Assembly: GCA_028818155.1 (NCBI GenBank)
Contig: JAPPOH010000005.1
Coordinates: forward strand, 29,943-93,942
Source of the DNA: Candidatus Woesearchaeota archaeon
Lineage (GTDB): Archaea > Nanobdellota > Nanobdellia > Woesearchaeales > UBA525
DNA length: 64,000 nucleotides
Direction of reading: 5' to 3'
The notes beneath the pieces were generated by a model. It had not been told where the DNA came from, made no database searches, and saw only the letters and a program-made list of their open reading frames with translations. The translations under genes and the position numbers were made by a program. Positions 1,744-41,267 of this stretch are shown piece after piece (the first letter of the stretch is position 1; the number at the start of each line of letters is the position of its first letter).

Positions 1744-1767
1744 GTTCGAATCCCGGCGGGGGCATTT
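1744..1767 (+). other. tRNA 3'-end-like fragment (T-loop + T-stem 3' + acceptor 3' + discriminator) with no 5' partner; alternatively a G-string origin element
   Basis: TTCGAAT-CCCGG-CGGGGGC-A matches the canonical tRNA 3' end. The preceding bases TTTGTG cannot form the T-stem, and no GCCCCCG acceptor 5' strand lies upstream. Confidence 0.3.
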
Positions 1768-1799
1768 GCATTTTTTTGTGCTTTTTTTCCTTCCATATA

Positions 1800-16599: not shown

Positions 16600-16654
16600 C
16601 GTTATTTTTCGTTTGCCCACTCGGAATCCCTATAAACCATATAAGTATGGTTCT

Positions 16655-16675
16655 TAGAGGGTGATTTATAAAGAG
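16655..16675 (-). promoter_or_regulatory. two TATA-box-like elements (TTTATAAA x2) in the 211-bp gap between the 2785-aa and 3536-aa genes; likely internal promoter for RHH-ORF + 3536/742/575-aa genes
   Basis: TTTATAAA at 16655-16662 and 16668-16675, 55-75 nt upstream of the small ORF start codon on the minus strand. Confidence 0.4.
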
Positions 16676-16692
16676 AATTTATAAATCTTCGC

Positions 16693-22600: not shown

Positions 22601-25050
22601 ACACCAAATGTGTCAGTTATCGTCGAGTTGAACAATATGTACTCGCTTTGATTGATCGATGTGTCGTTGATGACTCCATCTGTTATCGACGGGGTTACAT
22701 TATTCACATGAACAGTGAAATTATGCACAGAGAAATCACTATTCGCATGCGTATCAATACATTGCACGTTCCAGACGTACGTTCCATCTGCAAGACTCAG
22801 TACTGTGATATTTGTAGTTGTTGCAACAGGAACATCTGTGGCACTCGCATTCGGCGCCCATGAGCCAGTACTATTCGTATAGAGTGTACATGTCGCAAGC
22901 ACCGCATCGTAGTTATCAGTTGCTGAGAAGTCAAAGTCAACATTGTTGTCATTCACTTCAGTGTTATTTCCAGGTGCAAGGAGTGTGACGACAGGTGCTG
23001 TGAAATCACACACACCATCCCAACGGCTCCCATTACTATGATATGTTGAGAAGAGTGCATCATCTGTGTCATTCGTGTATGCAATAGCAAACGTATTGTT
23101 ACATAACCCTGTATTAAGGTGGGAATTCCAGCCAGTCACACCTATTAGTTCGTATGTAGTATCGGGAGAGCTCGTCACAATGAACGGAGCTGTGACTTCA
23201 CTTCCCGTTTGGTTGTATACTGCAGCTTTGATTGTTCCATCAGATGTATCTTGCCAGGCAACGACAAAATGACTTTGCGAGGCATTGTTAATTTCCGCGA
23301 TATCAACACGACTATCTGTTCCAGCATTCGCATCAATCTGTGTGTTACCAAGTAACGTCGTGAACGTGAGACCATTCGGCCGTCGTATACCAATGAAAAT
23401 GTCATCAACATTCGAATCATAGTAGACATACGCAAACGTATCATCCTGCAAGTGCGTCACAGCAACTTGCCCTGTTTCTCCAACATTCGTGTCAACATCC
23501 TGATTGTTTCCTCTTGAAAGCCCATCTGCAGCAACCCACCGTAGTGTCGCGTCATTCGGCGGATCATCAAATCTGATATAGATCCAGTGCGAACTGTTCA
23601 CTTCTGCACAGTCGACAAGATTCTGCAGTGTGAGTGCAGGAGCAATATTCCCGTCAACATTCCATTCATTTCGAATTTGTGCTCCATCATTCCCCCATAT
23701 CTCAAGGTCAGCATCTCCATCAGCAGTATTCGCCCAAACAATGCCGAATTCACTTCCAATTTGACAGAGTCCAACATCCATATTCGCTCCGATATTCGGA
23801 TCAACTTGGGTTTCCCCTTGCACTTGTGTTCCAGTGCTATCATAAATAAAGAAGTCAACATCATCTTCAGGTCCATCACCCACAGCAAACACAAAGTGCG
23901 TCCTATTGATAACTTCAACAGCAACACGACTTGTCAGATCCCCTGTTGTGTCAACATCGACTTCATCCACCAATTGCGTCCCATTCGTATTCCAGATTTC
24001 AAACGAGGCATGATTGTTGGCATCCCCGTCGATGAACCCTATGACGAGTGTTGTTTCATTTAACGCAGTCAGTCCAACGTCAATCGCTTCATTATCGTCA
24101 AACGTTTCAGCAAACCCAGGATCTGTCGAATTAATTATGAAGTCATATGACTCTCCTGGTGTGATGCTTTGTGCGTACGTCCAATTTCCGTAGCATGTTT
24201 GTGCTGTGAAGTTCCATTCAACACATTTCCATAATTGCGTACCTGTCGCGTTTGAAGTTACTGTTGCGTTCGTGAAGTTCACTGCTGATGGATCAATTGC
24301 GTACATTCTCGCTGGAGCCCTCTCACGGATGATAACTCCATCACTCTCGACGGGTTCTACACCTATTTCAAGCCCTTGTTCAATCACGACATCCCGAAGC
24401 GCGATACGTTGCACGGGAGCAGAGCTAAAAATGACATCCATATCATAGTGTTCCTCACTTAATTCTGGTGTAAACTGCCCTAAGTTGATAACATTCCCTA
24501 TTTTGTCTTTTATGAGGATTCCAGAGGGCACTATCTCTTTCTTACTTGTCTTCACTTCAAGAATACGGAGCCCATCATCCATAACAGGAGGGGGGAGTGA
24601 GATTTGTGGTGTGGTGTTTGTTCTGTTCTCAGATGTATTCACTTGCACAGTAACAGGTGTTGTATTCTGCACGCTTCCATTCCCAGATATTGTAACAATC
24701 GTTCTTCTTTGTCTCGGGGGAGCTGCTGTTTCAACCTCAGCGATGGCAGTAAAGGAAATGTTCACCCGTCCTGAAACAGTAAACGCTTCAATGACATAGT
24801 CGCCAGCCTCTCGAGGAGTAAACGCGATAGAAGAACTCGGTTCTCCCATCAAGCGATACCGTTCCTCCCCGTGAACGATCGTGAGGGAGGAAATTTCACT
24901 AAGGACTCGTATGACGACAGGCGTCCCAACTTGCTGCACGTTAGAGGAGATGAAGAACACATCATTCGACACTGGCTCGCTGAGAACAGGCATAAGCAGC
25001 AGCACGCTCAGTAGTGCAATGACCATTACTCGTTGTTGCTCACCTCTCAT
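16693..25050 (-). CDS. giant secreted multi-domain protein (2785 aa); contains CARDB-like domain, Ig-like Cys-pair repeats, one copy of the ~270-aa Cys-rich cassette domain, conserved C-terminal domain shared with the 5406-aa protein
   Basis: Uninterrupted 8.4-kb ORF. The N-terminus has a signal-peptide-like hydrophobic segment (VMVIALLSVLLLMPVLSEP). The C-terminal ~100 aa (ILWDSADD...GTYDYEIKVPSRL) is homologous to the C-terminus of the next gene. A CARDB-like segment ends in DDANLLNNN. Confidence 0.9.
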   Translation of the reverse strand: MRGEQQRVMVIALLSVLLLMPVLSEPVSNDVFFISSNVQQVGTPVVIRVLSEISSLTIVHGEERYRLMGEPSSSIAFTPREAGDYVIEAFTVSGRVNISFTAIAEVETAAPPRQRRTIVTISGNGSVQNTTPVTVQVNTSENRTNTTPQISLPPPVMDDGLRILEVKTSKKEIVPSGILIKDKIGNVINLGQFTPELSEEHYDMDVIFSSAPVQRIALRDVVIEQGLEIGVEPVESDGVIIRERAPARMYAIDPSAVNFTNATVTSNATGTQLWKCVEWNFTAQTCYGNWTYAQSITPGESYDFIINSTDPGFAETFDDNEAIDVGLTALNETTLVIGFIDGDANNHASFEIWNTNGTQLVDEVDVDTTGDLTSRVAVEVINRTHFVFAVGDGPEDDVDFFIYDSTGTQVQGETQVDPNIGANMDVGLCQIGSEFGIVWANTADGDADLEIWGNDGAQIRNEWNVDGNIAPALTLQNLVDCAEVNSSHWIYIRFDDPPNDATLRWVAADGLSRGNNQDVDTNVGETGQVAVTHLQDDTFAYVYYDSNVDDIFIGIRRPNGLTFTTLLGNTQIDANAGTDSRVDIAEINNASQSHFVVAWQDTSDGTIKAAVYNQTGSEVTAPFIVTSSPDTTYELIGVTGWNSHLNTGLCNNTFAIAYTNDTDDALFSTYHSNGSRWDGVCDFTAPVVTLLAPGNNTEVNDNNVDFDFSATDNYDAVLATCTLYTNSTGSWAPNASATDVPVATTTNITVLSLADGTYVWNVQCIDTHANSDFSVHNFTVHVNNVTPSITDGVINDTSINQSEYILFNSTITDTFGVDTGLVELLFPNGTRKNYTLTQDGDTFIHTIIETNQSGIYNITLIWANDTFGQVGQNTSPGLSFEVYTSDPTPFTLLLPLSGTVSSNLQPNLSWEQTTDDTFDNYTIILDKSSDFDSPDFTYDNDPITNTSRVVDFALDANSIYYWRVVAYDVFSNSRNSTADFTYITDTLGPNLTLNLPVNATEYGTGTITFNFTTSDTNQVDNCTLYVNTTGTFDANETNTTITNGGESFITTDFAEGHYLWTVNCIDEAGNSVTSYETLNRTIIVDLTPPIVTLLVPTNNTFENETNNVQFNASANDVMSDVDFCELIINDVVEQTETTISDGVTFTFTEFLLNGQYNWTVNCTDDNGNEGTVAFFNITVSVVDADPPLITLNDPVDNEHIPQSNVTFNYTPEDATGIDRCELYIDGVLNQTCGNQVIGEAGATQVGNFTFVYITFNNTYASVPVVIATPASQNAGAAEDNNGFVPVVKDVTTTGFNVSLCSDNGAATCDTTTELEDVHYVVFDVDAIANYDWIAAGTTTGINHNGADNAVSFGKTLSGTPHVFTTTNTYNQNTGEMALNAWVEGADTNASHTTVIGCVHEGVVDTCTGGDATETVGWVAITETQIVGYQNGSADITNSGWTPASFSPNFGDPIVMVTQNDDDGGQDPQYPWARNVVSSGMDFRYCEQDVADDCDTHTGELVYWGALESGNLRAPVTPACFVNNFVPNFFNATVPEGAHNWSITCVDNSTSFNSGTSVTNDFTIDLTDPTVMLNAPSDGALVGASITFNYTGNDTNLNNCSLYTNETGSWIAVQVNTTPLNGQPSVFVRSIVDGTYIWNVLCEDQSGRGSFDSSNRTIIVDTSPPTYTSNTTDPASPATYSSGALYEFNATWIDNVAVDTVLLEHNFTGALINETVALSVSNIYNYTISDLAGGTYRYRWYANDTSNNINQTPLHTYIINKATGSINLLLNNTDGNLTIIERSSVNITAALITPSAGYIEIYLNGTLLENASAPITNFTFFAEPGFYNVTAVFNETENHTSSVETHWITILDITPPIITQLSPENSSFVGTNNVVLQYNVSDSISIDNCTLFIDELENETDTSVTVGATEEFNVYLEDGNYTWRVQCYDVQSNFNTSFTLNFTVLKSDSINVDVTTNKLQYEVGDIANITTNTTDIFGTGLQTNVTTDIIYGNTTFKWWNTSWKKRQPLLITNQLASARTDVVVFANITGLAGNISDCVNEIRLILLNSSNVKNNYTVIPVEALGGDDDEYCEFRFLANISGGATNDEMYHVYYNNSGATDPGYAAISRTVTIMTEDFGDSSGGDGWFDTTGTNCGANLCTENSPWGNFNACIDGGDYEFCTTDDGADQAHSSTDYALRLQDLDVWAPERGVIFNMTNNNSLCGTSPCDSIRASSDFVGASLDSLSEFCTLITTDDNAATYTLLLNCTNANTTTCYTNDATPEPVDYFEIGPYDACTYAGIECNIDDVIQFNLGGRAPGNAGDHCMWDNFEVVGDKMTNANITTAFQEEEWHIYRNESETDSSGFVLMQFPTASEVFGNYSAVSEAYRSNFTNGTGWAQFEIVTDSTPPNVTLYAPPDFFESGAGSFNFTYAPYDINLDNCTFYLEQVTFDPIVTNTTPTNGENNTFYEEFVNVGVREWNVLCYDTYGNSAFAPLNFTINITGPDLKVNETDVTTSGESLVEGVNITLFANITNQGNTDTNDSIIVQFFTGGQGGDQINGNITIAELNISQSVVVNVSYILLPGVNEIFVTVDPMNTQDDANLLNNNVTINLTVEQYQIYYGNVSSGIVLHSGGDNTSYYEFGNVSNVAGHLLVADTDSAFSIVNLYALTRTEGGSPTGNDFTDADTNLNTSSFEDSLEEIWGGGTNTPLSVRGVNFTSNFVENVPYVNSTNVTAFWTGILWDSADDASANDQFDTTDEEDLVFVANINVSQAGMFGTYDYEIKVPSRLASYKGSEDTVSFFFEIV
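20510..21330. repeat. copy A of ~820-bp intragenic repeat cassette (encodes ~270-aa Cys-rich domain ...PVVIATPASQNAGAAEDNNGF...DPQYPWARNVV...FRYCEQD...ELVYWGA)
   Basis: Long stretches align base-for-base with 32090-32930 and 38370-39210. Examples are the TTCTGGCTTGC[AG]GGCGTTGCAATCAC segment and the CAGTAGCGGAAGTCCATGCC segment. Spurious antisense ORFs with near-identical peptides recur at each copy. Confidence 0.8.
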
Positions 25051-28000
25051 CGTAGTTCAGTATAGAAGCTTACCGATCCACCTCCGAGTATATAGTCACG
25101 TAATGTCGCAGGAATTTTGATTTCATAATCATATATTCCATATTGTCCTGCTTGTGATTCGTTCATGATTGTCACAAACACAATGTCTTGCGATGTATTG
25201 TATGCTGAGCCACCATCACTTGTATCCCACAAGATACCTGTGACAAAGCTACTTGTGTTCGTACTATTCACAACAGGAATATCTGTGATTGTCCGCTTGA
25301 ATGATTGTAGCGTAATAGAGGCTACAGGCGCTCCTCCGCTCGTCCACGTGAGATTAACACTGTCATTCAATGATGTTGCGTTCAGTTGCTGATCAATCTC
25401 TTCGAAGTCATCATTTCCTGTGTCAGTTCCATTTGTTGTGTTTCTCCCAATTGCTTGTAGTGAGGTGAAAATCAGAGAACTATCAGTGTCAGCAACGAAG
25501 ACATTACTTCCTGTTACGTTTGTTTGATTCCATTTGAATGCGCTGATGATAGATGCATCAGATATTTTGAGCTCATTTCCACTTGTTCCTGCAAAGATTT
25601 CGAAATGCCCGACATTGAAGTCTCTGAATGCTTCGTTATTACTTTCATTTTCTTCAGCAATACTACCATTTGTCGCAAGCGGCGGATCAACAAGTACATA
25701 GATTCTATTCAAGCCAATGACTGCTGAGTGATTCATGCTGACAGTTGTATTCTCGCCAATCCCCAAACTGGCAATAGTGGCATTCCCATTGATTTGTACA
25801 CCGCCCAGATCAGGATCACCAAGGAAGAACTGCACAGTGATATTCGTAGCGTTCAAGTTTCCAATGTTAAAGACTGTTGCATTGACTTCCACTGTCTGAT
25901 TTTCGATCGGCGTGCTGTTGCTGAATGTAATATTCCCTGCATTGATTTCTAAGTCGGAAAGCTCAACGAAGAATTGCCAGGTTTCACTAATGCCTGCGTT
26001 TGTCGCATTGTCAATACATGTTGCATTCCAGAAGTGGTAGCCGCTGTTGAGATCATTCACGGTGAAATTGTGGAAACTGCCATTCGTCACGGAAACATTC
26101 ACACTCACCACAACATCGTCGAGGGTCAAGTTACAGATGAGCGGCGTGCCAAGATTGTCACTCACCGTGAAGTTCAATGTTACGCTTGTACTTGAAAGAT
26201 TAGTATCGTTTAGCGGTGTGAGGAGTGTGACATTTGGTGGTGTTACATCTACATAGATGACAATCTCAGTATCATTTACTACATGTCCTGCTTCATCAAG
26301 TGCTTGTACAATGATTGTGTGATTCCCTTCTGTAATCGCGTTGAGTGTTGCAGTAGCTTCAACGCCATTCGTGCTCGTCCCGTTTGTATTCGCCACACCA
26401 TCCACATAGATTGTGTAGTTCAGGATAGGATCAAGATTGTCCGTGATGTTGAAATCAATGCCTGGAGTTAGTGTGTTGAACCACGTGTTGTTTGCGGTCG
26501 TGGTATTCGGTACTGGTGGCGTAAGATCAACATAGAACGTCAGCACAGTACTATTGTCTATGTTTCCTAACTCATCTTCTGCCTCTACAGTGACTGTGTG
26601 TTGTCCCTCAGCCAAGTTGCTGAGATTAACAGTGTTTCTCGTATTGTTCGTAGTTGTGTTCGTATGGTTCAGTGTACCATCGAGGTAGAACGTGTAGTTG
26701 AGGTTTGCTGAGAATACATCTGTGATGTTAAACTCAATCGTTACGTTCGTGACGGCATACCATGAGTCATTCTGTGTGAGGAATGTCACGTTCGGTGCTG
26801 TTGTATCAATTCGTATAGTGAGTGGTGTTGAATTCTTGAATCGCTGTAGTGTATCATTTGCCTGTACAATGATTGTGTGCACACCATCAGCTAGTGCTGT
26901 GATGTTCAAGCTGTTGTTTTGCAGATCTTGCACGACACCGACTTGTCCGTTTGCTGTGTCATCAACATAGATAACGTAGCTGAGATTCCCTCCAGTAAAG
27001 TCACTGATGTTGAAATCAATTTGTGGCGTTGTGTCTGCTGTAATGTTATTCTCTAATGGTTGTGTAATATTAGCGAAGAGAAGACTAATATTCCTTGATG
27101 CATTATTGTTGTTCTCGACAAGCTCCCCAATCAGTCCATCAGGATCCGCGGAGACAAAGATTTCATGGTAACCAAACGTAATGTTCCAACTTACCGAGAA
27201 GATCGTGGAGCTGTTGAATGCCACAGTCTGTGTGTCGTTGCCAATAAGTGTTCCTCCCGCACTCGGTAGCCCATCCCAGAACTGTACAAGTACGTCGTTT
27301 GCTCCTGTACCGCCTATGTTGCTCACATTTGCGGTAATATTTATTGTTTCACCTAGGTCAGGATTTGTCTCGTTGAAGTTTATTCGTGATGTTTCGTTGA
27401 GGACGAGATCTGGCTGGTTGATAACGAACGACTGTGTGAGGGAGTTGTTCGTGTTTCCAAGATCATCACTGCATGTGACATTCCAGTCATGAGAACCATC
27501 TGCAAGTCCAGCTACCGTTGTATTGAAGTCAGTGTTCGCAGTTCCAGTTATGCCAGTCACTGTGATGTTGTTGCTTGCATTCGTCACGAAAAGCGAACAA
27601 TTCACAGTTGACCCAGGGTGATCAATTGGTGTCCAGTTGAATGTGACATTATTACTATTCAACGTCTCGAGGTCCAGTGGTAGATTGAGTATAATTGTCG
27701 GACCGAACAAATCAACGTAGAAAGTGTAGTTTGTGTCATTTATGCCCTCATTGCTACTCAAGTCGATACAACTAACTGTCCAATTATACTCTCCATGTGC
27801 TAGTGCTGTGAGATTAAAGTCATTCGTCACGTTATGTGATACTGTTGTGTTCGTTTGATTGTTAAGACCATTCACAATGAGTGTACAGTTCCCAATGTTC
27901 TCTGAATTGTCAGTTGGTGTGTAATTGAGCATGAATGACGTTACTGCTGCTCTCGTTCCATTCGATGGAGCGTCTAGCACTACTTTAGGCGGTTCATTCA

Positions 28001-31000
28001 CTGTGAAATTGAATGTGTCTGATGCGCCAATTCTTCCAGAATCATCAGTACAGGATACTTCCCATAGGTGAAGGCTGTCATTGATGCTGGAAATTGTCGT
28101 GTTTGCTACAGATCCATTCGGGGAGTCGATGTCTCCTGCAACAAGCACACTGTCAAGAGAGACGTTACAACTGAGAGTAGGATCGATATTGTCAATCGCA
28201 GTCCAGTTGAAGAGGATCGTACTCACAGCGAATGTTGTCCCGTTCGGATGATGTGGTTGTACTGTTGGATTTGTGAAGTCAATGTAAATAGTCCGTATTT
28301 CAGAAGCTCCTCGCACAACATCATTGTCTGTGCAGTTTACCTGCCATGTATAACTACCTTCATTCAAACTTTCTAGTGTGAAATTGTTCTCAGCATTGTT
28401 CGTTATCGTTCCATCTGTTTGGTTGTTTGATCCATCGATAATGAGTTCACAGAAACCACCAGAGTCAAAATCTGCGACACTTTGTGGAGTGTAGATGAAT
28501 GTTACGTCTCCATCACTGTCACTTGCGTTGTCATCAGGGGAATTGAGAATGACATTTACATCAGGACTCACACTGAAGTTCAGCGTTTCAGATGTATTCA
28601 CAAATCCAGTATTGTCAATGCACGTAACATTCCATGAATAGTTCCCTGCTGTGAAACCTGATCCTGTCACCACAGTTGCTGTTCCATTGTCTGCTGTGGT
28701 CGTTATATTCACATCCCCGTTCACAGTGACGTTACAGTCAAGCACAGGGTCAATATTGTCGATTGCTGTAAAGTTGAAATCGACCGTCGTCACGAAGAAT
28801 GTTGCATTGTTTGCCGGAGCATTGAGTGTAACTGTAGGCGTTCCACTATCAACGTGGAATTCTCTCACAGGAGAACCAGAACCTGAGAAACCATTTGTAT
28901 CAACACAAGTCACTGTCCAGTTATGGACGCCCTCAGGAATGCCGGTCAGATTGAATTCGTTCGGATCATCTCCGTCTTGGTTTGGAATTTCCGAGCTGTT
29001 CTTCGTTTGATTGACAATGCCATCGATAATGAGTGAGCAGTTTGAGAGGCTAGATTCGACAACGGTGTAGTTGAAGCTAATATTGCCTACTGGCGTCCCA
29101 TATCCATCCACAGGTGTGGTGAGCACGACAAGTGGGGCTGCGTCATTCGTGAAGTTCAATGTGTTGCTGATTCCTGTGTTGTTATTGTCGTCATAACATG
29201 TAACGTTCCAATAATGGAATCCATCACCAATACCTGAAACTGCGCCTGTGGTGACTGATCCATTCACTGCTGTCGTTGTATTCCAGTATGTTCCTTCATC
29301 AACACTAATGTTGCAGAAGAGTAATAGATCAACATTATCTGCAACTGTGAAGTTGAATAGAATGTCATTTGATGAGTGTACAGTTCCATCCGGATCAATC
29401 GCAGTTACAACAGGATCTGTCTCGTCAATAATTAACCTGAACGGGCCATTTGTTGCATTTCCAATGTTTCCTACAGTATCTGTGCATTGCACTGTCCAGC
29501 TATAATCACCTTCACCCATGTTCTCAATAAGGAACGATTGGTTCACCATCTCAGTAATTGTTGTATTCGTTTGATTTATCTCCCCATTAAGCAACAATGA
29601 GCAGTTTGCAATGGTTGTTCCGAGATCATTCGCAGTATAGACAAACGTGATATCCGTGACATCATCAATTGTATTATTCGGCGGAGCAAGGATTGTCACT
29701 TCTGGAGGGAAGATATCACTCGCAATGCCAAAGATTGCATGATCTACTCCGAGACTATCTGGATCTGCCACTGCCCGTCCAACAGCTGAGTAGTTTCCAA
29801 AGTCTCTCCCGGATGAATTCCAGAGGTTCGTGAAGTTCCCACCCACTCCTGATTCGTTTATGTCTTGCTGTAGGTGGATTTGATGTCCTGTAAGTATAGC
29901 TTCTATTGAGCTATAGTTCGAGAGTTCAACAACGAACGTTGTTACTGTGTTTGTGTTTGAGGCTGTTTGTTTGTCGTAGGAAAGATTCGTTCCATTTGTG
30001 AGCGTTGCAATGAGCATTGCATTCGTGTATGTTGTTCCTCCTCCTGTACTCTCCCATGTACTGATGTGGAATGTTCTGTTCAGTACAACTTCGTTTATCG
30101 CGACAGAAGTGTCAGTGCTGAAGGCAGAATCATCCACTTGTGTCACTGTCCTCCTTGGCATCTCAACCATAAACCAGTCAATCATTGCAACGCCGTTTGC
30201 CCCCACAGATCGTTCAAAGCTCACACGATCACTTCCGACAAACTCAGCCCTGACGTGGTTCTCGTCTAATCCTGTGTCATTCGCAATCGTTCGACTCATA
30301 ATGATGAAACTTCGTGTGTCATTGAATGCATTGATCACAACAGTCTCTATCGTGTCACCTGCGTCCATTGTTGCTGTTCCATTTTGAACTCGTGTTCCTT
30401 CCCATGTAACAACTTGCCATGCGACATTCGATTCGGCACCCCCTGTGAGTCGCTCAAATTCGATCTGCGTACTATTTACAAAGTGTCCTCGAACAAATGC
30501 AATATTATTGAGTGAGGTACTAGTTGAGTCTCCACTGGCAGACACAACGATGAAGCTCTTTGTCACATCAACTTCAGCAATGTCCGCTGTTGTCGTTAAC
30601 GTCCCTGACGTGAGTGTGTTATTTCCTTGTTGCATCGTAATATCCTCATGCTCAATAACTTGCCACGAAATATTCGCCGCTGCCGTACCAAGGTAGCGCG
30701 AGAAGTGCAAGTGCGTACTGTTCGTAATATTTCCTGTGAATCTATTCCCATCAGGCGATGTGTCAGCAGAATTAGCTGTGAAAAGCAAGAATGAATTTGC
30801 TACTGTAACAGGTGTTGGCAGCTCCACAATGAAATCTGCCCCCGTCCCATCAACCGTTCCTCGCTGTACATTTCCACGACTGGCTACTGTTGCATTTGCT
30901 GGCGAGCCAGATGCCCCAGTGTTATTGAAGTACGCAAAGTAGCGATCTTGGTCGAACGCATTTGCTGTGATGTTCGCAGCAAAGAACACTTCACAGTAAT

Positions 31001-34000: not shown

Positions 34001-37000
34001 GGTTTCCAACGATGAGGATGTGGAGATCACCGTCATCAAGAATATCATCGACGCCTTGTAATTCGAGTTCAATGTACATATCTGCAGCTATCGTGTTGTT
34101 CGCTTCATGTATTCGAGTGTATGAGTTACTCGTGTGGTTGAATACGTAAATATAGAATGTATCTGCTGTCTGGAATGTTTGCTGTGTAACATACCCTTCG
34201 TAGAAGAAGAGGATTTCTTCTATATCGATCGGCGATTCAGTCACTTCAAATCGGAAGCTCTGATAGACGGACTCTCCAGTATCTGTTGTTGTTGTCGTCG
34301 CAAGTCGAACGTTATTCGACGTTGTGACAGATGAGTAACTCGAGGTTGATATTTCTGTTTCTCGAACGGGGGTACTTGTCGGCAGCAAACTTCCGTTTGC
34401 ACCATCATATAACGCATGTATGTTACTTGGATGCGTGATACCTGTGTATGTGTACGTGCTCACCACATCAGCAGGTTCGATAAATTCAATGAGTGGCTCA
34501 TGTGTCATTCGCTGCCACTCGAATTCAATGTACGCTCCAGGACTTGTCGCTGTGCCATCATTTTCAAAGTCACCACATCCAACATCTGTGAATGCCCGCC
34601 CTGTCCAGAGTGCACACGAGAGTGTGTCATCTTCTCCCTGATCATATACAAAGATTTCATCATTTCCAGGACTGCTCGATGTGATAACATGTCCAACATC
34701 TCCTCCGCCTGGTTGTCCAATAGGATTTCCTTCACCCCAATCACTAAACGACCATGAATTTGAGCTAATCGTGTAGAAGCCACCTTCAGGGAAGTCTTCA
34801 TTCGCATCAACCCACACATATACGATCTGGTCACCTGATTTTTCAATGGCACAGCTTGTTGAATGCAGGGCTGCTGTTCCTTCGTTCCCACCACATTCAC
34901 TTGCAGTATCTTGTACGGGTGTTTCCGAGGATAGTGCTTTCGAGAATGCACTGCCATCCCAGTAGCCACCATCACGATCAGCATCCTGATCACACGTCAT
35001 AACACCGATGTAATCGTGTGCAAACGACCCTGTCGATGGTGATTCTCCACACAAATGCACCTCTCGGGCTTCAGCACCAAGACCATCGTAGATGTTGCCA
35101 AGATGCGTCCACGCATTTGTGCTTGGCTGGAATCGCCATGCATAGAGATCGTCTGAGTTATTCCCGTATGCGAAGAGCATTTCTCCAGAATTTCCTTCCC
35201 ATGCACATGAGAACTGCTTTCTGTCATCTCCATCAGCTTCTAATGTAACGTTGATCGTATGGTTAAACACATTGTTGTCTCCATCCCACACGGTTGCGTA
35301 AATATCACCTGTTCCCGCATCATTTTGTATGCCCATGCCGATGAGGTTAGTGTCCTTTTGTGCACAAAGCTCAAGCCATCTGAAGTCGTTGTTCGGCGCT
35401 CCACTGATACTGTATGTCTGCTCTGTACTGAGATTATCTCCATTCCACAATCTGTAAGCGAAATCCCCATCAAGCCCATTTGCTGTCTCATACACGACGA
35501 GACAATCTTCACTGACGAGATCTTCACATGCGACATCGAAACTACGCTGCACATCCAAGCCCCGATTCGGCTCTACTTGTGTGATATTATGCCACACTCT
35601 GTTCACGATGTCGAATACCGCAAAATCAATAGAGTTATCGACTTCTTGAATCATAGCATAGCACTCGGGCCGCCGTTGAGCACAAACAAATCGATACCAT
35701 GAGATATTGCTTCCAAGTGCGCCAAAGATGTTTTCTTCTTCGCCAAGTACACCGGTCCAATTCCTCTGTAGCGGATTCTCTGGATCAGTGAGGTTTGCGT
35801 ACAGGAGTATTCCAACTTCACCAAACTTCGGTAGTTCAAGATCATTGAACTCTGATGGGGCGTTGACAGTGAATGCACGTTGTTCACTCGTATTCTTATT
35901 CGCACGATTATCAGTGCACGTGACATTCCACGTGTGTGCTCCGTTCGCAACTTCAACAGATCTAGTCGTTGCAGTGCCATTGGGAGAGGGGATGTTTCCG
36001 AGACGAATAGCACCATCAACGATAAGATCACACGCAAGCTCAGGATCTGTATTGTCCGTTGCAGTCCAGTTGAATGTGATCAATGAGACAGCAAAGCTTT
36101 CTGACACGAGCGGTGCGTTGAGGACGATAGTGGGCTCCTCTTCATCAACAATACAGGTGCCACCCCACTCCCCTCCGTCTTGGTAGAACCCTTTCCAGAC
36201 AAGATCCCCAGAGCTGTTTGTGAATGCTACTACAAAGGAACCCTCACAGATGCCAAAGCCAAGCTGCGTGTCGGCGCCAATCGCATCATGTAGGAGGTAT
36301 GTCGCATCAGGCTCACTTGTAATGTTGAATGGTCCTGCCACATAGCTGCCGTTATTATCGAAGACTGAGGCTTTGATGCTGTTATCTGCTCGGTCTTGCC
36401 AGACGACAGCGATATTGCTCGTCCCTTGGAACTCAACTTCTGCGGCAGCAACTCTCGTTTCAGTCCCTAAGTCAGTGTCAACTGCAGCAGAGCCGATTGT
36501 TGTGAACGTATCACCTCCAACATCAAGCACAGTGAGATTGACGTGGTTGACGGCACTGTCGAAGTACACAATACCAACGCGTTCTCCTCCAATGTGTGCA
36601 ATCGCAACCTGTCCTGTTTCACCAATATTCGTGTCAATATCAGTTATGTTGTTGATGATGCTCGCACCTGTGTTTGGAATGATTCTTGCGCTCAAGTCAT
36701 TCTGACTGTCATCGAACCATGCTGTTACGGCGCGCGTGCTGTTCGTTGTTGTACAATCGACAAGGTTCTGGAGTGTTTGTGCAGGCGCAATGTTTCCATC
36801 AATGTTGAACTCACTCACACTCAACGTGCCATCATTCGTGTAGATCTCTCCATCATAGTCGTTATTCAAATCTTCTCCATACGCGACAATGAACTCTGCA
36901 CCGTACTGGCAGACGCCCATGTCTGTGAAGATATTTACATCTGCGTCAACCTGTGTTTGTCCCACCACCGCAGAGCCATTTTCGTGATAGATGTAGAAGT

Positions 37001-40000
37001 CAACATCTTCTTCAGGACCATCATTCACGATGACAACGAAATGTGTTTCATTGATCGGTGCCGCTGCGATGCGACTGGAATCGTCAACAGTTGTATCGAT
37101 ATCAACTTCTGGCACGAGGAGTGTTCCATTTGCGTCCCAAACTTCAAATGATGTGTGATTACTATCAACATCAACCCACGTCACAATAATCGTTGTGTTA
37201 TCGAGTGCCGCGAGTGCTACATCTTGTCCCTGGCTGGCATCGACGTATCCGGTAGGCACATCAACTGTGACGAACCGCGTTTCACTCGTGTTTACGTTGC
37301 CAAATGTATCTTGACACGTGACGTTCCAAATATACAAGCCATCTGACAGAATGAGCGATTTGTTTGCCGCTACACCTGCGCTCGATCCAATTGTGGCTTC
37401 CACATTGCCATTTATGGTCAAGTTACAACTAAGGAACACTGCCTGATCGTCATCAGCTGTCCAATTGAAATCAGTGAGTGATGTGGGTACTGTCGAATCG
37501 TTCGCTGGGGAATTTAGTGTGATGTTTGGTGCGATGTCATCAAACCCACAGAAGCCATCCCATGTACTTCCATTCACGAGGAAGAGTTTTCGCTCACCAA
37601 CGGCAGAGCTATTCGTGAATGATACAACGAATGTCCCATTGCAGAGCCCAGCTTCGTGCTGGGAATTGTATCCTGCAACACCGTGCAATCTGTACGTATC
37701 ATTGATATTTGTGCTAATGTTAAAGGCCGGTGTGATGAGCGTTCCTGTTCTGTTGTACACAACAGCCTCAATGACATCTTCTCCTTGATCATACCATGTC
37801 AGCACGAACATGCTTTCATTGTCTGCTTCAATTTCTGCAACATCTAATCGCACTTGCGAAGTAACAGACGTGTCAATGTTAACAGGGCCAACAGCCGCTG
37901 AGATGGAATCTGCGGATGTATCGACGACAAGCATTTTCACAGTGCTCTCTGGAGAATCATAATAGAACATTGCTATGTCTTCGTCTCGTAACCCTGCGAG
38001 TGCCATCTGTGATGTGCCACCAACATCAAGATCTGCTCCTGATGGCCCTGCAACGATAGATCCTGTTTCATCGTAGAGTGCTGCTGTGAGGTCGTCTGTC
38101 GCGTCATCAAACCAGCTCACGAACCACCTCGTGTCGCTCACCGGCACAACGGAAACGAGATTCTGTAAGTTTTGGTCAGGCGCGACGTTATCGTCAATAT
38201 CGAATTCAGTAGCTTCAACACTGCCGTTGAGATAGTGGATCATGCCGTGAAGATCATCGCCGCTCGTGTCATCGACCCACGCAGAAACGATTCGATTTTG
38301 AATGTATGCTGATGACACGTCAACATTTACGCCCGCATCCGTATCAAGAATGAATGGCGCACCGATCGTACCTTGTTCAAATGCGCCCCAGTACACGAGC
38401 TCACCTGTGTGCGTGTCACAATCATCATTCCCGTCTTGTTCACAGTAGCGGAAGTCCATGCCACCAGCGACAACATTTCGGGCCCACGGATATTGTGGAT
38501 CTTGTCCACCGTCATCATCGTTTTGTGTCACCATGACAATAGGGTCTGCAAAGGTCGGTGTGAATGTTGCTGCTGTCCAGTCAGAGTTGCTGATGTCGGC
38601 ACTTCCTGATTGGAAGCCACCTATTTTGTGATTTCCCGTGTCAATCGCAATCCAACCAACAGTTTCAGTGGAGTCTCCTCCTGTACAGGTATCTCCTGTG
38701 TCTTCATGGACACAGCCAAGAACAGTCGTATGACTTGCGTTTGTATCCGCTCCCTCAATCCATGTGTTCATCGCCATTTCACCAGCAGTTTGCGTGTATG
38801 TTTGTGGTGTCGCGAAGACAAAGGGTGTTCCTGAGAGTGTTTTGCCAAAGGAAACGGCATTATCTGCCCCATTGTGATTTATCCCAGCGGTTGTTCCTGC
38901 AGCGATCCAGTCATATGCTGTGATCGCATCTGGGTCAACGACGACGTAGTGGACCGTTTCAAGATCTGTGTCAGTGTCACACGTTGTTGCGGCGTTGTCT
39001 CGACAGAGACTGACGTTGAATCCTGTGCTCGTTACATCTTTTACGACAGGAACGAAGCCGTTATTGTCATCGGCTGCTGCTGCGTTTTGGCTTGCAGGTG
39101 TTGCAATCACAACAGGCGCATTCGAGTATGTGTTTGCGAACGTGATGTATTGGAAATTAAAGTCTTCAACTTGTGTGCTCCCTGCTTCGCCTATTGGTCG
39201 GTAGGTGTGGTGTCCGCTTTTATTGTAGACGTAGATGTAGTTTGTATCATCATCTGCGTCATAGAGATTGATCAAGAAGTGTGTCGTGTTGATTGTCGCT
39301 GCATCAATGCGTCCCCAGTTTGACGATCCATCTTGCACATCGGTATCAATGTCAATTGCTCCATACAGATCTGTCTCATTTGTGTGTATAATTCTGAAAC
39401 TTGCATCCTGACTTGTCTCTTCTATGTATGCAACAACGTAGAGATCTTCATCTAGTGCTGTGACGTCTGATTCGACGACAGGCTCATCGGAAAACTCTGG
39501 GTCGATTGCCAAGTACCATGGTCGTGCTTCGGTAATTGTTGTTGTGTCGTACGCGACTTTCGATTGTCCAAGTTGGTAGAGTTCTGGGGTGATTTTCGGG
39601 ATTGTTGCTGTGTAGCTCACTGTGGAGCCGTTGCTGAGGTTATTCCACGTAAGGAAAATGTTCGTCGTATCTTGTGTTTGCGTTGCTGTGCTTGTGATGT
39701 TTGTGAAGTTGATGGGCAAGACTTCTGTATAGTTGAACGCACCGCTATGGTTGAATGACGTGACTGTTACAGACACAGCGAGCAGCTCTTTGAATGGATC
39801 TATCGTCACGGGCGCATTCCTGATGATGTCGAACGGATAGTGTTCCTGCACGAGGAAGAAGGAGAGCATGCTCTGGTTCACATTCACATCGTGTGCTTCC
39901 ACGAAGAGATCGTATGTTCCTTCTTGTTCTGGTGTGTATATCGCTTCGTACACTCCATCAGATGTCTCTATGATCGTTGTGATATTCGTCGTTATGTTAT

Positions 40001-41267
40001 TCGGGTCTGTGACAAGCAGTTGTATATCTGCGTTACTCACGAGGAATCCGTTGTTGTCGAGCACAACCATGACGATTTCTGCTGTCTCATTCGGGCGATA
40101 GATGGGCTTTCTTGTGTTGACTGTGGCAACGCCTGTCTCTGCGTAGCCAGGATCGCCAGGGTAGAGGAGAATATCGTACTGTTCTCCTGGCCTGAGGTAC
40201 TTGTGCAATTCCCATGTGCCGAAGCATGTTTGTGTGGTGAAGTTCCATTTTGCACACTTCCAGAGTTGGCTTCCTTGTGCCGTACTCGTCGCTGTTGCAT
40301 TACTGAAGTTCAAATTGTCAAGGTTAATCGCGTATGCTTTGAGTACAGGATCGCCGTTGATCTCAACGCTTTCTTTCGGGAGATCATCAATGCCAATTTC
40401 AATCGTTTCCTGCGGTACACAGTCGTGAATATCTAGCTTTTGTACTGCTCTACTGTCTGGCGTGACGTGGACTTCGTATGAGTTGTTGCTGTTTTTCTCA
40501 AACTTGACAGCTGCGTATCGTCCTTGCCCTTCATTATTCACAACGCCGAAGGTAAAGAGGCCATGCTCATTTTCAAACTCTTGTGCCGGAACGTCAACAA
40601 TGAGTGCAGGTTCTGGTTCTTCTATCTCATCACCGGGCTCTGGTTCGTCAGGTGTTGGTTGTGGAAGGAGTGCTGGTTGGACGGTGAATGCATGTCTCCC
40701 TACGACGGCACCATTCTCGGAGATGATGATTTCGTGCAAGCCTGGATACTTTGGCACGAACGGTGAATCTCGCCATGGGCCGAAGTATTTGAACAAGCCA
40801 CCAGGGCCGTTGATGATGATCTTGATATCTTGTGTTGGGGGTGGTGTGATGGATATGTGGACGTTTTGCTCTGCTCTCGGTTCTTCGCTGATGGTGATTG
40901 TCCTTGTCTTATTCGTCTCGTTCGCTTCTTGGACGGTGAATATGTCTTGGTGCACAACCTGTCCTGAGCTGTCGATGAGTTGGACGGTGTATTCGCCCGG
41001 TGTTTTCGGCACGAATGGAACAACCTCCCCTGGTTCATCTAGGAGCCTGTACTTTGCTTCCGGCGCGAAGATCATGATACGTGAGCTGTCGTTTGTTGTG
41101 TTGATGAGGACGGGTTCTCCAACGTTGTAGAGTGTTTTGTCTGTGATTGCTATTGTGAGTGGAAGGATTACTAAGAGTGCTACAATGAAGGCGTACTTGG
41201 CTGTGGTGGATTGTCCTCTAGCCATGTTTCCACCTCTTGATGATCGTTGGATAGAATGTGTGTCCAT
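25047..41267 (-). CDS. giant secreted/anchored multi-domain protein (5406 aa; about 5392 aa if it starts at the alternative ATG 41225). It has an N-terminal signal anchor, two copies of the ~270-aa Cys-rich cassette domain, at least two CARDB-like domains, many Ig-like and FN3-like repeats, and the conserved C-terminal domain
   Basis: Uninterrupted 16.2-kb ORF. N-terminal hydrophobic segment AKYAFIVALLVILPLTIAITD. The alternative start 41225 overlaps the upstream regulator's stop by 8 nt (CATGGCTAG). The C-terminal ILWDTSDGGSA...GIYDYEIKIPATL matches the 2785-aa protein. Confidence 0.9.
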   Translation of the reverse strand: MDTHSIQRSSRGGNMARGQSTTAKYAFIVALLVILPLTIAITDKTLYNVGEPVLINTTNDSSRIMIFAPEAKYRLLDEPGEVVPFVPKTPGEYTVQLIDSSGQVVHQDIFTVQEANETNKTRTITISEEPRAEQNVHISITPPPTQDIKIIINGPGGLFKYFGPWRDSPFVPKYPGLHEIIISENGAVVGRHAFTVQPALLPQPTPDEPEPGDEIEEPEPALIVDVPAQEFENEHGLFTFGVVNNEGQGRYAAVKFEKNSNNSYEVHVTPDSRAVQKLDIHDCVPQETIEIGIDDLPKESVEINGDPVLKAYAINLDNLNFSNATATSTAQGSQLWKCAKWNFTTQTCFGTWELHKYLRPGEQYDILLYPGDPGYAETGVATVNTRKPIYRPNETAEIVMVVLDNNGFLVSNADIQLLVTDPNNITTNITTIIETSDGVYEAIYTPEQEGTYDLFVEAHDVNVNQSMLSFFLVQEHYPFDIIRNAPVTIDPFKELLAVSVTVTSFNHSGAFNYTEVLPINFTNITSTATQTQDTTNIFLTWNNLSNGSTVSYTATIPKITPELYQLGQSKVAYDTTTITEARPWYLAIDPEFSDEPVVESDVTALDEDLYVVAYIEETSQDASFRIIHTNETDLYGAIDIDTDVQDGSSNWGRIDAATINTTHFLINLYDADDDTNYIYVYNKSGHHTYRPIGEAGSTQVEDFNFQYITFANTYSNAPVVIATPASQNAAAADDNNGFVPVVKDVTSTGFNVSLCRDNAATTCDTDTDLETVHYVVVDPDAITAYDWIAAGTTAGINHNGADNAVSFGKTLSGTPFVFATPQTYTQTAGEMAMNTWIEGADTNASHTTVLGCVHEDTGDTCTGGDSTETVGWIAIDTGNHKIGGFQSGSADISNSDWTAATFTPTFADPIVMVTQNDDDGGQDPQYPWARNVVAGGMDFRYCEQDGNDDCDTHTGELVYWGAFEQGTIGAPFILDTDAGVNVDVSSAYIQNRIVSAWVDDTSGDDLHGMIHYLNGSVEATEFDIDDNVAPDQNLQNLVSVVPVSDTRWFVSWFDDATDDLTAALYDETGSIVAGPSGADLDVGGTSQMALAGLRDEDIAMFYYDSPESTVKMLVVDTSADSISAAVGPVNIDTSVTSQVRLDVAEIEADNESMFVLTWYDQGEDVIEAVVYNRTGTLITPAFNISTNINDTYRLHGVAGYNSQHEAGLCNGTFVVSFTNSSAVGERKLFLVNGSTWDGFCGFDDIAPNITLNSPANDSTVPTSLTDFNWTADDDQAVFLSCNLTINGNVEATIGSSAGVAANKSLILSDGLYIWNVTCQDTFGNVNTSETRFVTVDVPTGYVDASQGQDVALAALDNTTIIVTWVDVDSNHTSFEVWDANGTLLVPEVDIDTTVDDSSRIAAAPINETHFVVIVNDGPEEDVDFYIYHENGSAVVGQTQVDADVNIFTDMGVCQYGAEFIVAYGEDLNNDYDGEIYTNDGTLSVSEFNIDGNIAPAQTLQNLVDCTTTNSTRAVTAWFDDSQNDLSARIIPNTGASIINNITDIDTNIGETGQVAIAHIGGERVGIVYFDSAVNHVNLTVLDVGGDTFTTIGSAAVDTDLGTETRVAAAEVEFQGTSNIAVVWQDRADNSIKASVFDNNGSYVAGPFNITSEPDATYLLHDAIGADTQLGFGICEGSFVVAFTNSSGDLVWKGFYQDGGEWGGTCIVDEEEPTIVLNAPLVSESFAVSLITFNWTATDNTDPELACDLIVDGAIRLGNIPSPNGTATTRSVEVANGAHTWNVTCTDNRANKNTSEQRAFTVNAPSEFNDLELPKFGEVGILLYANLTDPENPLQRNWTGVLGEEENIFGALGSNISWYRFVCAQRRPECYAMIQEVDNSIDFAVFDIVNRVWHNITQVEPNRGLDVQRSFDVACEDLVSEDCLVVYETANGLDGDFAYRLWNGDNLSTEQTYSISGAPNNDFRWLELCAQKDTNLIGMGIQNDAGTGDIYATVWDGDNNVFNHTINVTLEADGDDRKQFSCAWEGNSGEMLFAYGNNSDDLYAWRFQPSTNAWTHLGNIYDGLGAEAREVHLCGESPSTGSFAHDYIGVMTCDQDADRDGGYWDGSAFSKALSSETPVQDTASECGGNEGTAALHSTSCAIEKSGDQIVYVWVDANEDFPEGGFYTISSNSWSFSDWGEGNPIGQPGGGDVGHVITSSSPGNDEIFVYDQGEDDTLSCALWTGRAFTDVGCGDFENDGTATSPGAYIEFEWQRMTHEPLIEFIEPADVVSTYTYTGITHPSNIHALYDGANGSLLPTSTPVRETEISTSSYSSVTTSNNVRLATTTTTDTGESVYQSFRFEVTESPIDIEEILFFYEGYVTQQTFQTADTFYIYVFNHTSNSYTRIHEANNTIAADMYIELELQGVDDILDDGDLHILIVGNQTTAAGIDARADIFTDYVEVRTRMRPNIRLTQLSNISAEDDNGVDVCDYYYHNDTIGIGPEGTLKANATSFYNSSDTTVAANALYNLTAECNDTFGAENNETIDVRIDNVAPSIALDTPGNNTSPPTSNVTFGWNGTDDFTGTLICNLTIDDILNVSNVAADVGGQANVTVFSVPDGTHNWSVTCIDQAGNSATSETFYFTQNTGPPTVTLNAPAANAFLNESTVLFNYTPVDPIGIGNCTLILDGVANETNTSVTANQPNFFNITGISNGVHLWSVNCTDLGGFEGSSSTRNFTVDTIGPLALLNTTDGITFTEGVASLNFTVFDNLDTELLCNITINGVVEDSNIPSPARAYDKSCDETIGEAGAVQVEDFQFAYITYNRTYTSTPVVIATPASQNAGAAEDDNGFVAVVKDVTTTGFNVSLCSDNGATTCDTTTELEDVHYVVIDVDAIAGYDWIAAGTSTGIQGNGVEQTMSFGKTLSGVPHVWGTMQTYTQNAGEMAMGFWFDDADTTTSQTGLTGCVHEGIANDCTGSDATETIGWVAITPDEQIVGYQNSSAAIASSTWTAATFTPAYTTPIVMVAQNDDAGGQDTQYRWARSVVAGGMDFRYCEQDAADTCDTHAAELMVWGAFEEGNVSGPPPDGCAEVMINRNLTLPDGLHFWNVTCVDEAGNYNISETRNFTIVGPPFIELQVPVNGTTQSGNTVNFTYYVQDGDGIGNCSLIIDDVVNRSNTTGLTVPGNNSFIVNNMATGVHTWTVNCTDNLGENGTAYNGPYTINIDGIPPFINLSLPLNDTTALIPAINFNFTPIDDFSANMTCNLTIDGVVDSGNLNFNAPNNTLTNRVQTLGNGIHEWNVTCSDASGNVNTSETRFVTVNITLPVNISVVTDKSNYQQGEIVNITVTVFNSSWAQLNTNVTTDIIYTNASTTGAPWWNTSWGRRIAIDLNETTNSPRYGEVVLVNISNLDGYNTDCDTELRIVEFKNNVTVELPRTIVDGNGTHYCEVFFAANITANAFDQDRYFAYFNNTGASGSPANATVASRGNVQRGTVDGTGADFIVELPTPVTVANSFLLFTANSADTSPDGNRFTGNITNSTHLHFSRYLGTAAANISWQVIEHEDITMQQGNNTLTSGTLTTTADIAEVDVTKSFIVVSASGDSTSTSLNNIAFVRGHFVNSTQIEFERLTGGAESNVAWQVVTWEGTRVQNGTATMDAGDTIETVVINAFNDTRSFIIMSRTIANDTGLDENHVRAEFVGSDRVSFERSVGANGVAMIDWFMVEMPRRTVTQVDDSAFSTDTSVAINEVVLNRTFHISTWESTGGGTTYTNAMLIATLTNGTNLSYDKQTASNTNTVTTFVVELSNYSSIEAILTGHQIHLQQDINESGVGGNFTNLWNSSGRDFGNYSAVGRAVADPDSLGVDHAIFGIASDIFPPEVTILAPPNNTIDDVTDITFVYTANDLGTTIANCSLLLNGEINQTNTTITEMVNQSFLIENMGEGDYSWTVQCTDTVGNIGNATNGPFRLIIDETDPVVTAIDPDGTVHSSNDILFNFTVADNVDLLLFCNISVDEGTYWNTTTAVNGSVTTGAVSGIGDGFHYWNVTCYDDNNNTGISNTLNFTNDAAPLVVLTTPVDGYGTPVGNISFNYTVVESSLSNCSLIIDGIVNQTKNSSEIPNQDGDDPNEFNLTGIPEGVHNWTVTCVDTNGFSGSGSPVREFHVDSGTPTVTLNAPANNATFFVTTVDFNFTAIDNIDPVLDCNVTVNGDVNITTTADNGTATVVTGSGFTAGNYSWNVTCIDNTGFVNTSETLNFSVSPDVNVILNSPDDNASDSDGDVTFIYTPQSVADFDSGGFCELIIDGSNNQTDGTITNNAENNFTLESLNEGSYTWQVNCTDNDVVRGASEIRTIYIDFTNPTVQPHHPNGTTFAVSTILFNWTAIDNIDPTLSCNVSLDSVLVAGDIDSPNGSVANTTISSINDSLHLWEVSCTDDSGRIGASDTFNFTVNEPPKVVLDAPSNGTRAAVTSFMLNYTPTDNSENIGNCTLIVNGLNNQTNTTVSHNVTNDFNLTALAHGEYNWTVSCIDLSSNEGINDTNYTFYVDLFGPTIILNLPLDLETLNSNNVTFNWTPIDHPGSTVNCSLFVTNASNNITVTGITGTANTDFNTTVAGLADGSHDWNVTCSDDLGNTNNSLTQSFVINQPDLVLNETSRINFNETNPDLGETINITANVSNIGGTGANDVLVQFWDGLPSAGGTLIGNDTQTVAFNSSTIFSVSWNITFGYHEIFVSADPDGLIGELVENNNNASRNISLLFANITQPLENNITADTTPQIDFNISDFTGGNLSYVIYVDDTANGQVGVVQDLQNNSLNITALADGVHTIIVQANDTLQRFKNSTPLTIRIDTTAPNVTFLTQNDSWYAVTNVTIEFNITDVFSANLNYTFYLDGTLNHTNTTTNNTRNTVNLSNLAEGQHTVTVEAEDELGNIDNSTVLTFYVDLTPPVPNTTTANNTWFNTLTPGIDFNITDNLDPILNYTIYVDGVANTNGTSTNGVEATATLNAITEGNHTIIVQALDEAGHVVNDTEIVIYVDVTPPNVTLLTPLNDTNLSSTSVTLNFTVSDNLGTPLICNLTLDDVVVSVNVSVTNGSFHNFTVNDLNSGYHFWNATCIDNATNAGISETWQFFVELSDLEINAGNITFSNSTPIENQTVEVNATVFNIGNLNATNITVQFFLGDPDLGGVQINGNATIASLGIGENTTVSMNHSAVIGLNRIYVLVDPPLATNGSIAEENESNNEAFRDFNVGHFEIFAGTSGNELKISDASIISAFKWNQTNVTGSNVFVADTDSSLIFTSLQAIGRNTTNGTDTGNDDFEEIDQQLNATSLNDSVNLTWTSGGAPVASITLQSFKRTITDIPVVNSTNTSSFVTGILWDTSDGGSAYNTSQDIVFVTIMNESQAGQYGIYDYEIKIPATLRDYILGGGSVSFYTELR
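32090..32930. repeat. copy B of ~820-bp intragenic repeat cassette (within 5406-aa gene)
   Basis: Same alignment as copy A. The antisense ORF 32698..33318 peptide MSHVVAPLSLHKLTLNPVVVTSFTTATKPL... parallels MSVSHVVAALSRQRLTLNPVLVTSFTTGTKPL... at 38968. Confidence 0.8.
38370..39210. repeat. copy C of ~820-bp intragenic repeat cassette (within 5406-aa gene, ~5.4 kb from copy B)
   Basis: Same alignment as copies A and B. Confidence 0.8.

Follow-up and report, generated by a model that had tools for sequence, protein, structure and literature searches.

What does an unbroken reading frame of 16.2 kb in an uncultivated archaeon encode, and is it one gene at all? The question is raised by a 64,000-nucleotide stretch of contig JAPPOH010000005.1 (positions 29,943 to 93,942, forward strand; assembly GCA_028818155.1) from a Candidatus Woesearchaeota archaeon, hereafter the window, which carries on its minus strand an open reading frame (ORF) of 5406 amino acids (aa) at positions 25047..41267. 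We find that this ORF is one genuine, intact gene under purifying selection and that its product, here called the giant, is a further giant adhesin-like surface protein of the DPANN archaea, from an uncharacterised family of Woesearchaeota and Pacearchaeota. Judged from its sequence, the giant is likely to be a Sec-exported, acidic, densely N-glycosylated, fibrillar surface adhesin that binds glycans. Residue numbers of the giant follow the 5406-aa ORF throughout.

The ORF starts with ATG and contains no internal stop codon, according to both the ORF listing and the translation. Given the ORF's own base composition (stop probability 0.055 per codon), a run of 5406 codons without a stop would arise by chance with a probability of about 1e-134, and the longest ORF in the other frames of the same interval has 222 aa. 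A preliminary description of this DNA had reported a single uninterrupted ORF of this length, which we recovered at exactly the same coordinates. Translation probably begins at Met15 (ATG at 41225), giving a protein of 5392 aa, because a Shine-Dalgarno-like GAGGTGG lies 5 nucleotides upstream of this ATG, the ATG shares bases (ATGGCTAG) with the stop codon of a 159-aa gene ahead of it, an arrangement known from translationally coupled genes, and the public gene call also has 5392 aa. In GenBank the protein is MDD9953415.1, 'MAG: Ig-like domain-containing protein [Candidatus Woesearchaeota archaeon]' (MAG, metagenome-assembled genome; Ig, immunoglobulin), from scaffold ROBB21-1_SAMN13943220_METAG-scaffold_7 (214.6 kb) of ENA assembly ERZ23496502, a short-read metagenome. 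Genes for Cdc6/Orc1, RadA, RPA, TrmB and Lrp/AsnC are also present and identify the window as archaeal; neither a tRNA gene nor an Rfam family was found in the window. The preliminary description also ranked the protein among the largest in archaea. Archaeal proteins of at least 5000 aa are indeed few in a UniProt survey (PMC11573180), and the giant sits in this extreme size tail, yet it is no record holder: archaeal proteins of 9,409, 9,159, 8,880 and 8,553 aa have been published (PMC10266531, PMC6642349) and at least five longer ones occur in its own family.

The domain map of the giant (Table 1) bears out the order of domains proposed earlier, with the hydrophobic N-terminus, the two small domains, the domain with the YAI motif (YAINLDNLNFSNATATSTAQGSQLWKCAKWNF, at about aa 310-342) and the C-terminal domain (CTD) all located. 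There is only one hydrophobic segment (aa 21-46), and the tandem small beta domains that follow it recur at the N-termini of two neighbouring proteins of 2785 and 3536 aa. Behind the head lie two six-repeat modules that are putatively propeller-like, the first of which is split between repeats 2 and 3 by a lectin-like cassette. A second cassette splits an Ig-like module, with one Cys flanking the insert on each side (KSC...DGC). The preliminary count of dozens of beta-sandwich modules was generous. Many are present, but a hidden Markov model (HMM) grown from a single module finds 19 Ig-like modules of one family, one of them split, and about ten other beta-sandwich domains accompany them. Pfam matches in the giant are to Big_13, Big_3_3, CARDB and MG2/filamin. 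PDB sequence searches with the CTD, the cassette, the head, the propeller-like module, the unique region (aa 1803-2480) and aa 3300-3850 gave nothing meaningful, nor did NCBIfam; the unique region also has no Pfam match. A DUF2341 domain, which some homologues are marked as having and which we suspected by eye at aa ~3400-3480, did not turn up in the giant; in homologue P0008 it lies elsewhere.

The CTD places the giant in a large protein family. A CTD profile (A1), which scores 269 bits against aa 5191-5406 of the giant, has 818 matches, 771 of them below 1e-10, among 1.84 billion cluster representatives at 50% identity, and each match listed ends at the protein C-terminus or a few residues short of it. 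Among the best 150 matches, 94 proteins have at least 1500 aa (hereafter the long family members) and ten at least 5000 aa; the giant is sixth in length in this set, after proteins of 6807, 6061, 6018, 5866 and 5808 aa. At the DNA level, a degenerate motif for NS[ST]....F.TG[IV]LWD was found at no fewer than 118 loci in GTDB species-representative genomes, with a stop codon 71-83 codons past the motif in 118 of 118 genomic matches, and these are therefore genuine C-terminal domains. All 80 record titles among the motif matches listed are archaeal, most naming Woese-, Pace- or Nanoarchaeota; the rest include two Micrarchaeota and some generic 'archaeon' or 'uncultured Methanosarcinales' titles. 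The family thus appears, from its sequence matches, confined to archaeal and mainly DPANN-labelled lineages.

A search with the N-terminal 2450 aa retrieved 31 proteins of 1527-4277 aa, whose named sources are Woesearchaeota or Pacearchaeota except for one weak Nitrosopumilaceae match. These relatives have the head, the aa-3300 domain, CARDB and the CTD in common and differ in the middle. The YAI domain is present in 68 of the 94 long family members (29-53% identity), the aa 3300-3480 domain in 42, and CARDB in 68; in the giant and homologues such as P0001 and P0002, CARDB directly precedes the CTD. Complete short members (520-741 aa) also have a signal peptide and the CTD. Judged by these matches, the giant belongs to a lineage-specific Woesearchaeota and Pacearchaeota family with no fewer than 818 clusters at 50% identity. 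Predicted hallmarks of the family are a signal peptide, a YAI-MG2 head, a middle part that is freely shuffled and, invariably at the end, CARDB with the CTD of ~215 aa. Our literature search found no paper describing the CTD/head family. The precomputed Pfam list of homologue P0001 includes PF27237, which is absent among our local Pfam matches for this homologue, and part of the family may therefore already have a recent Pfam entry.

Subdomain 1 of the cassette alone scores 28.4 bits against Pfam H_lectin (PF09458; gathering score 24). The thirds of the cassette are homologous in profile-profile comparison (hhalign, 95.8% for thirds 1 and 2, 97.2% for 1 and 3), so the cassette is an internal triplication; subdomains 2 and 3 are tied to H_lectin solely through this alignment to subdomain 1. 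When the split Ig module was modelled together with cassette 2 in AlphaFold2, the mean pLDDT was 75, and most cassette blocks reached around 85-94. With moderate confidence, we interpret the cassette as a triple H-type-lectin-like unit nested within other domains. The cassette is rare in the family (three of the 94 long members) but is not restricted to giants: stand-alone proteins of 420-480 aa carry it as their C-terminal part, and one of these (P0032) begins with a pilin-like class III signal sequence. No cassette match was found in phage genomes by tblastn.

Several features point to the cell surface. The giant contains 269 N-X-S/T sequons, compared with 94 +/- 8 in composition-matched shuffles, an excess that is the probable signature of an extracellular archaeal glycoprotein, and all five large proteins encoded in its gene cluster have signal-peptide-like N-termini. 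In the model that we favour, the giant would be exported by the Sec pathway and N-glycosylated, and about two dozen Ig-like and other beta-sandwich modules would form a long stalk, on the order of 100 nm if ~25 modules each span about 4 nm. This stalk would present the two triple lectin-like cassettes, the two six-repeat propeller-like modules and the unique region of ~680 aa, whose ligands may be glycans or further components of the envelope of a host cell or of a surface; such binding would agree with the episymbiotic way of life that has been proposed for DPANN archaea. For the CTD, a part in anchoring, sorting or assembly on the archaeon's own envelope would be more likely than one in recognising a target, because it does not vary and always comes last, while its passengers differ in content and range from 0.5 to 6.8 thousand residues, a pattern that sorting or anchoring modules show. 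Export, glycosylation, adhesion, the choice of the cell-proximal end and the role of the CTD are all points that we infer.

Some observations weigh against this reading. MDD9953415.1 is the sole member of its 90% cluster, the sequence being recorded from one assembled contig only. No anchor is evident in the giant if the signal peptide is cleaved. Between ~35 and 40% of the protein (head, propeller-like modules, unique region, aa 3300-3850 and CTD) has no Pfam, NCBIfam or PDB-sequence match. In the context of the long protein the H_lectin score falls below threshold (20.4-22.7 bits against 24), and Foldseek with the cassette model returned no significant match, which is why the H-type lectin assignment is moderate rather than firm.

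Could the 16.2-kb ORF be an assembly chimera, in which two or more paralogous giant genes were fused via the cassette or the Ig repeats? The preliminary description had named an error of this sort, with repeats collapsed or two genes mis-joined inside the cassette, as able to refute the gene, and it had counted two repeats of ~820 bp. There are actually three copies, at about 38351-39197 and 32078-32918 in the giant gene and at 20505-21220 inside the adjacent 2785-aa gene. The short-read origin and the single contig would allow for such an error, as would the mosaic look of the protein, in which a P0001-like backbone is joined to a block resembling the neighbouring gene and P0006/P0008, and the fact that cassettes 2 and 3 occupy the identical Ig-module position in two adjacent genes. 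However, the copies are only 65-78% identical in DNA, no exact repeat in the 39-kb gene cluster is longer than 37 bp and TRF found no tandem arrays, so collapse or mis-joining is unlikely and the repeat content should not mislead a short-read assembler. Compared pairwise (Nei-Gojobori), the cassette copies have dS values of 1.25-1.6, above 1.2 throughout and nearly saturated, with dN/dS of 0.10-0.21; they are therefore old duplicates, each under purifying selection, and the selection that had been claimed earlier for this ORF is borne out by these three paralogues. The reading frame runs on properly over every junction, and the host domain picks up again beyond each cassette, correctly on both sides. 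The flanking domain orders also recur in independent assemblies from other organisms: the head is followed by the propeller-like module in homologues P0006, P0008 and P0133, and the head, unique region, Ig modules, aa-3300 domain, CARDB and CTD follow in the same order in P0001, P0002 and P0076. Family members of 5171-6807 aa are moreover known on contigs of 240-440 kb. We regard a chimera as extremely improbable.

The product of this gene could serve other ends than adhesion. One is a structural role in the envelope or glycocalyx, as an S-layer-like or halomucin-like coat, with the cluster building or protecting the cell's own surface. The very high sequon density and acidity of four of the five cluster proteins would suit a coat, as would five co-oriented secreted-protein genes across 39 kb; constant ends around a variable middle could mirror self-assembly interfaces, and halomucin, as it is cited in PMC6642349, provides a precedent for a giant protective glycoprotein. 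S-layer proteins, in contrast, are usually single, highly conserved and far smaller, a shuffled middle with rare cassettes suits variable ligand recognition better than a lattice, and the lectin cassette is also found on a pilin-like protein. A coat seems unlikely to us. Another possibility is an extracellular enzyme platform, with a catalytic domain (glycosidase, protease or lytic enzyme) in one or more uncharacterised regions and the Ig and lectin modules targeting the substrate. About 1,900 aa lack a recognisable family, lectin-like and CARDB domains commonly partner enzymes, and a platform of this kind would be similar to extracellular proteins that Castelle et al. (PMC8204110) describe from Woesearchaeota and Pacearchaeota, which reach 3,000 aa and contain a lytic transglycosylase domain, but no catalytic family was found by Pfam, NCBIfam or PDB sequence search, even at permissive thresholds, and the regions without a family resemble all-beta repeat or sandwich modules. 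This makes an enzyme platform quite improbable, and a glycan-binding surface adhesin remains the reading that we prefer.

A bolder version of the adhesin reading, which we put forward tentatively and with more doubt than belief, concerns the CTD and the cassette. The CTD, which has no PDB relative by sequence or structure, might be a new surface sorting or anchoring module specific to Woesearchaeota and Pacearchaeota, analogous to LPXTG, T9SS-CTD or PGF-CTERM, that tethers passengers of 0.5-6.8 thousand residues. The cassette might in turn be a mobile unit of glycan recognition, a nested, single-chain triple H-lectin module that these episymbionts swap between adhesins and pilins and thereby alter their host specificity.

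Table 1. Map of the giant and of the genes around it (coordinates are positions in the window).
Feature	Residues	Window coordinates	Strand	Remarks
Maximal ORF, 5406 codons		25047..41267	-	probable coding sequence 25047-41225 (5392 aa, ~581 kDa, pI 4.05)
Predicted N-terminal signal peptide or signal anchor (MARGQSTTAKYAFIVALLVILPLTIAITDK)	15-46	41130..41225	-	from hydrophobicity
Two tandem small beta domains	47-205	40653..41129	-	37% mutual identity; contain YRLLDEPGE and PKYPGLHE
Acidic Pro/Glu linker	205-240		-	from domain map
Conserved head: YAI..LNF..LWKC..WNF domain, MG2/filamin-like Ig, third domain of ~125 aa	240-600	39468..40550	-	
Putative propeller-like module, copy 1, six repeats (~55 aa each)	601-1240	37548..39467	-	trailing Ig-like module at aa 1243-1336 boundary
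Lectin cassette 1	691-965	38373..39197	-	three tandem H-type-lectin-like subdomains, Cys pair in each
Putative propeller-like module, copy 2, six repeats	1341-1660	36288..37247	-	unbroken; followed by Ig-like module
Unique region, ~680 aa	1803-2480	33828..35861	-	common to a few homologues: P0001, P0002, P0007, P0076
Six Ig-like modules	2529-3299			third (aa 2719-3111) split by cassette 2; from domain map
Ig-like module split by lectin cassette 2	2719-3111	31935..33113	-	HMM positions 1-53 before cassette, remainder after
Lectin cassette 2	2784-3057	32097..32918	-	
Conserved domain (aa 3300-3480) and internally repeated part	3300-3850	29718..31370	-	no family match
Eight consecutive Ig-like (Big_13-type) modules	3851-4617	27417..29717	-	
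CARDB; four Big_13/Big_3_3 modules; second CARDB	4620-4720; 4734-5102; ~5104-5213	25629..27410	-	
C-terminal domain (CTD)	5191-5406	25050..25697	-	motifs NSTN..F.TGILWD and YDYEI.IPA.LR.Y
Upstream 159-aa gene		41218..41697	-	stop overlaps Met15 start; TATA-like boxes upstream
Paralogous 2785-aa gene		16693..25050	-	start overlaps stop of giant gene by 4 nt
Three further secreted-protein genes (3536, 742 and 575 aa)		1922..16481	-	no CTD in any

The giant is encoded by the second gene of a co-oriented run, after the 159-aa gene, and is the first of five large secreted-protein genes that share one orientation and together encode 13,044 residues over 39.3 kb. The 159-aa product gives only sub-threshold winged-helix signals (HVO_A0114, RepL, HTH_IclR), and no conserved counterpart of its gene stands beside homologue P0009. 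The 2785-aa paralogue shares the head of the giant and contains a single propeller-like module, a split Ig module with lectin cassette 3 (20341-21504), CARDB and the CTD. It is followed by a gap of 211 bp in which there are two TTTATAAA TATA-box-like elements and a 43-aa ORF (MTIDEEVFVMFKRLCKENAMKV..., 16468-16692, minus strand) that overlaps the start of the 3536-aa gene and has no Pfam match; the elements and the overlap suggest that a promoter lies inside the cluster and that a small leader gene is coupled to the 3536-aa gene. The 742-aa and 575-aa genes each start on a 4-nt overlap with the preceding gene. The 742-aa protein (3646-5874, minus strand) differs from the other cluster members, with He_PIG, Big_9 and cadherin-like domains, few sequons (ten), no Cys, and a C-terminal transmembrane anchor with a basic tail. 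As a matter of speculation, it is a candidate membrane partner of the anchorless giants.

Tandem giants are also found elsewhere. Homologue P0009 (4021 aa) comes after a 5750-aa gene, and under a strict criterion a further family-type gene starts no more than 600 nt downstream at 18 of 106 related loci. No conserved downstream partner of the CTD genes was found at these 106 loci, only tandem family members and heterogeneous other genes. At three loci from other Woesearchaeota (L006, L026 and L114) the CTD gene adjoins a gene for a protein of ~800 aa with a signal peptide, an extracellular beta domain, a transmembrane helix and a HerA/VirB4-like P-loop ATPase, reminiscent of the ATPases tied to nanohaloarchaeal giants; tblastn found no homologue of it in the window.

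Some further elements of the window lie outside the cluster. The sequence GTTCGAATCCCGGCGGGGGCA (1744-1790, plus strand), located between the surface-gene cluster's end and cdc6, resembles the T-loop and acceptor 3' end of a tRNA and is followed by T-runs. A tRNA was not confirmed there by ARAGORN, also with introns allowed, or by Rfam, and the 21-mer at 1744-1764 is unique in the window; the element could be the 3' half of a split tRNA or what is left of an integration site. The plus strand also carries a free-standing LAGLIDADG endonuclease gene directly upstream of radA (60665-61480 and 61777-62793), and two tandem intergenic copies of ~107 nt, 78% identical, occupy 54035-54258, upstream of a 214-aa ORF at 54344.

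A very long ORF is in itself unsurprising, and the protein is already in GenBank under a generic name. Woesearchaeota and Pacearchaeota are among the most widespread uncultivated archaea. Should the genome have the small size usual in DPANN archaea, 13,044 residues over 39 kb would be a considerable outlay. The most interesting details are, in our view, the triple lectin cassette placed as a domain within a domain and the orphan, strictly C-terminal domain. The CTD profile offers a handle for finding the adhesin repertoire in metagenome-assembled genomes, and the cassettes are a starting point for work on glycan binding.

Cultivated DPANN symbionts are well known for their giant surface proteins (PMC6642349, PMC10266531). 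The SPEARE proteins have 5,998-8,553 aa (PMC6642349), and Nanohaloarchaeota also encode proteins of 8,880 and 9,409 aa (PMC10266531). The giant resembles SPEARE proteins in coming from DPANN archaea with small genomes, in its secreted ectodomain of several thousand residues built from Ig-like and other adhesion modules, in several giant genes adding up to ~4% of a genome and in the proposed role in host attachment. However, SPEARE proteins have a transmembrane helix near the C-terminus, a cytoplasmic VirB4/TraG-like ATPase (formerly 'restriction enzyme') and laminin-G domains, whereas the giant ends in CARDB and the novel CTD. It has no hydrophobic segment past aa 46, no ATPase family in Pfam and no Laminin_G/LamG match at E <= 0.01, and no sequence relationship to SPEARE surfaced in the N-terminal and CTD searches. 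Lacking a C-terminal transmembrane segment and the ATPase, it is ruled out as a SPEARE protein. Targets of diversity-generating retroelements have been reported in Woesearchaeota and Pacearchaeota; this candidate was rejected as well, as the 64-kb window contains no near-identical repeats and no template/variable repeat pair, exact repeats in the cluster do not exceed 37 bp, and no reverse transcriptase was seen among the scanned ORFs.

Bacterial fibrillar and RTX adhesins (MpIBP, SiiE, LapA, Bap) share with the giant a tandem Ig-like extender, interspersed lectin-like modules and conserved terminal modules for retention or secretion. The giant differs in its predicted archaeal Sec-type signal peptide, its dense N-glycosylation sequons and its other terminal domains, and it has no RTX repeats or type I secretion signal, nor a HemolysinCabind or related Pfam match. 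The murein-transglycosylase proteins (fam00969; PMC8204110) come from the same lineages, reach about 3,000 aa, are extracellular and have likewise been proposed to act in host attachment; a lytic transglycosylase domain was not detected in the giant or its four neighbours. Halomucin of Haloquadratum walsbyi (~9,159 aa), set beside the giant by its description, is also a giant, secreted, glycosylated archaeal surface protein, but it is much larger and belongs to a free-living haloarchaeon, in which a protective role has been proposed.

The cassette, finally, can be compared with the H-type lectins, such as Helix pomatia agglutinin and SLL-2. Its first third passes the PF09458 threshold alone, but identity between the cassette and known lectins is 15-19%. 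The H-type lectins already characterised are trimers of separate chains, whereas the giant has the three copies joined on a single polypeptide and carries this whole unit within another domain. With its ends next to each other, a three-copy fusion of this kind would readily fit into a loop.

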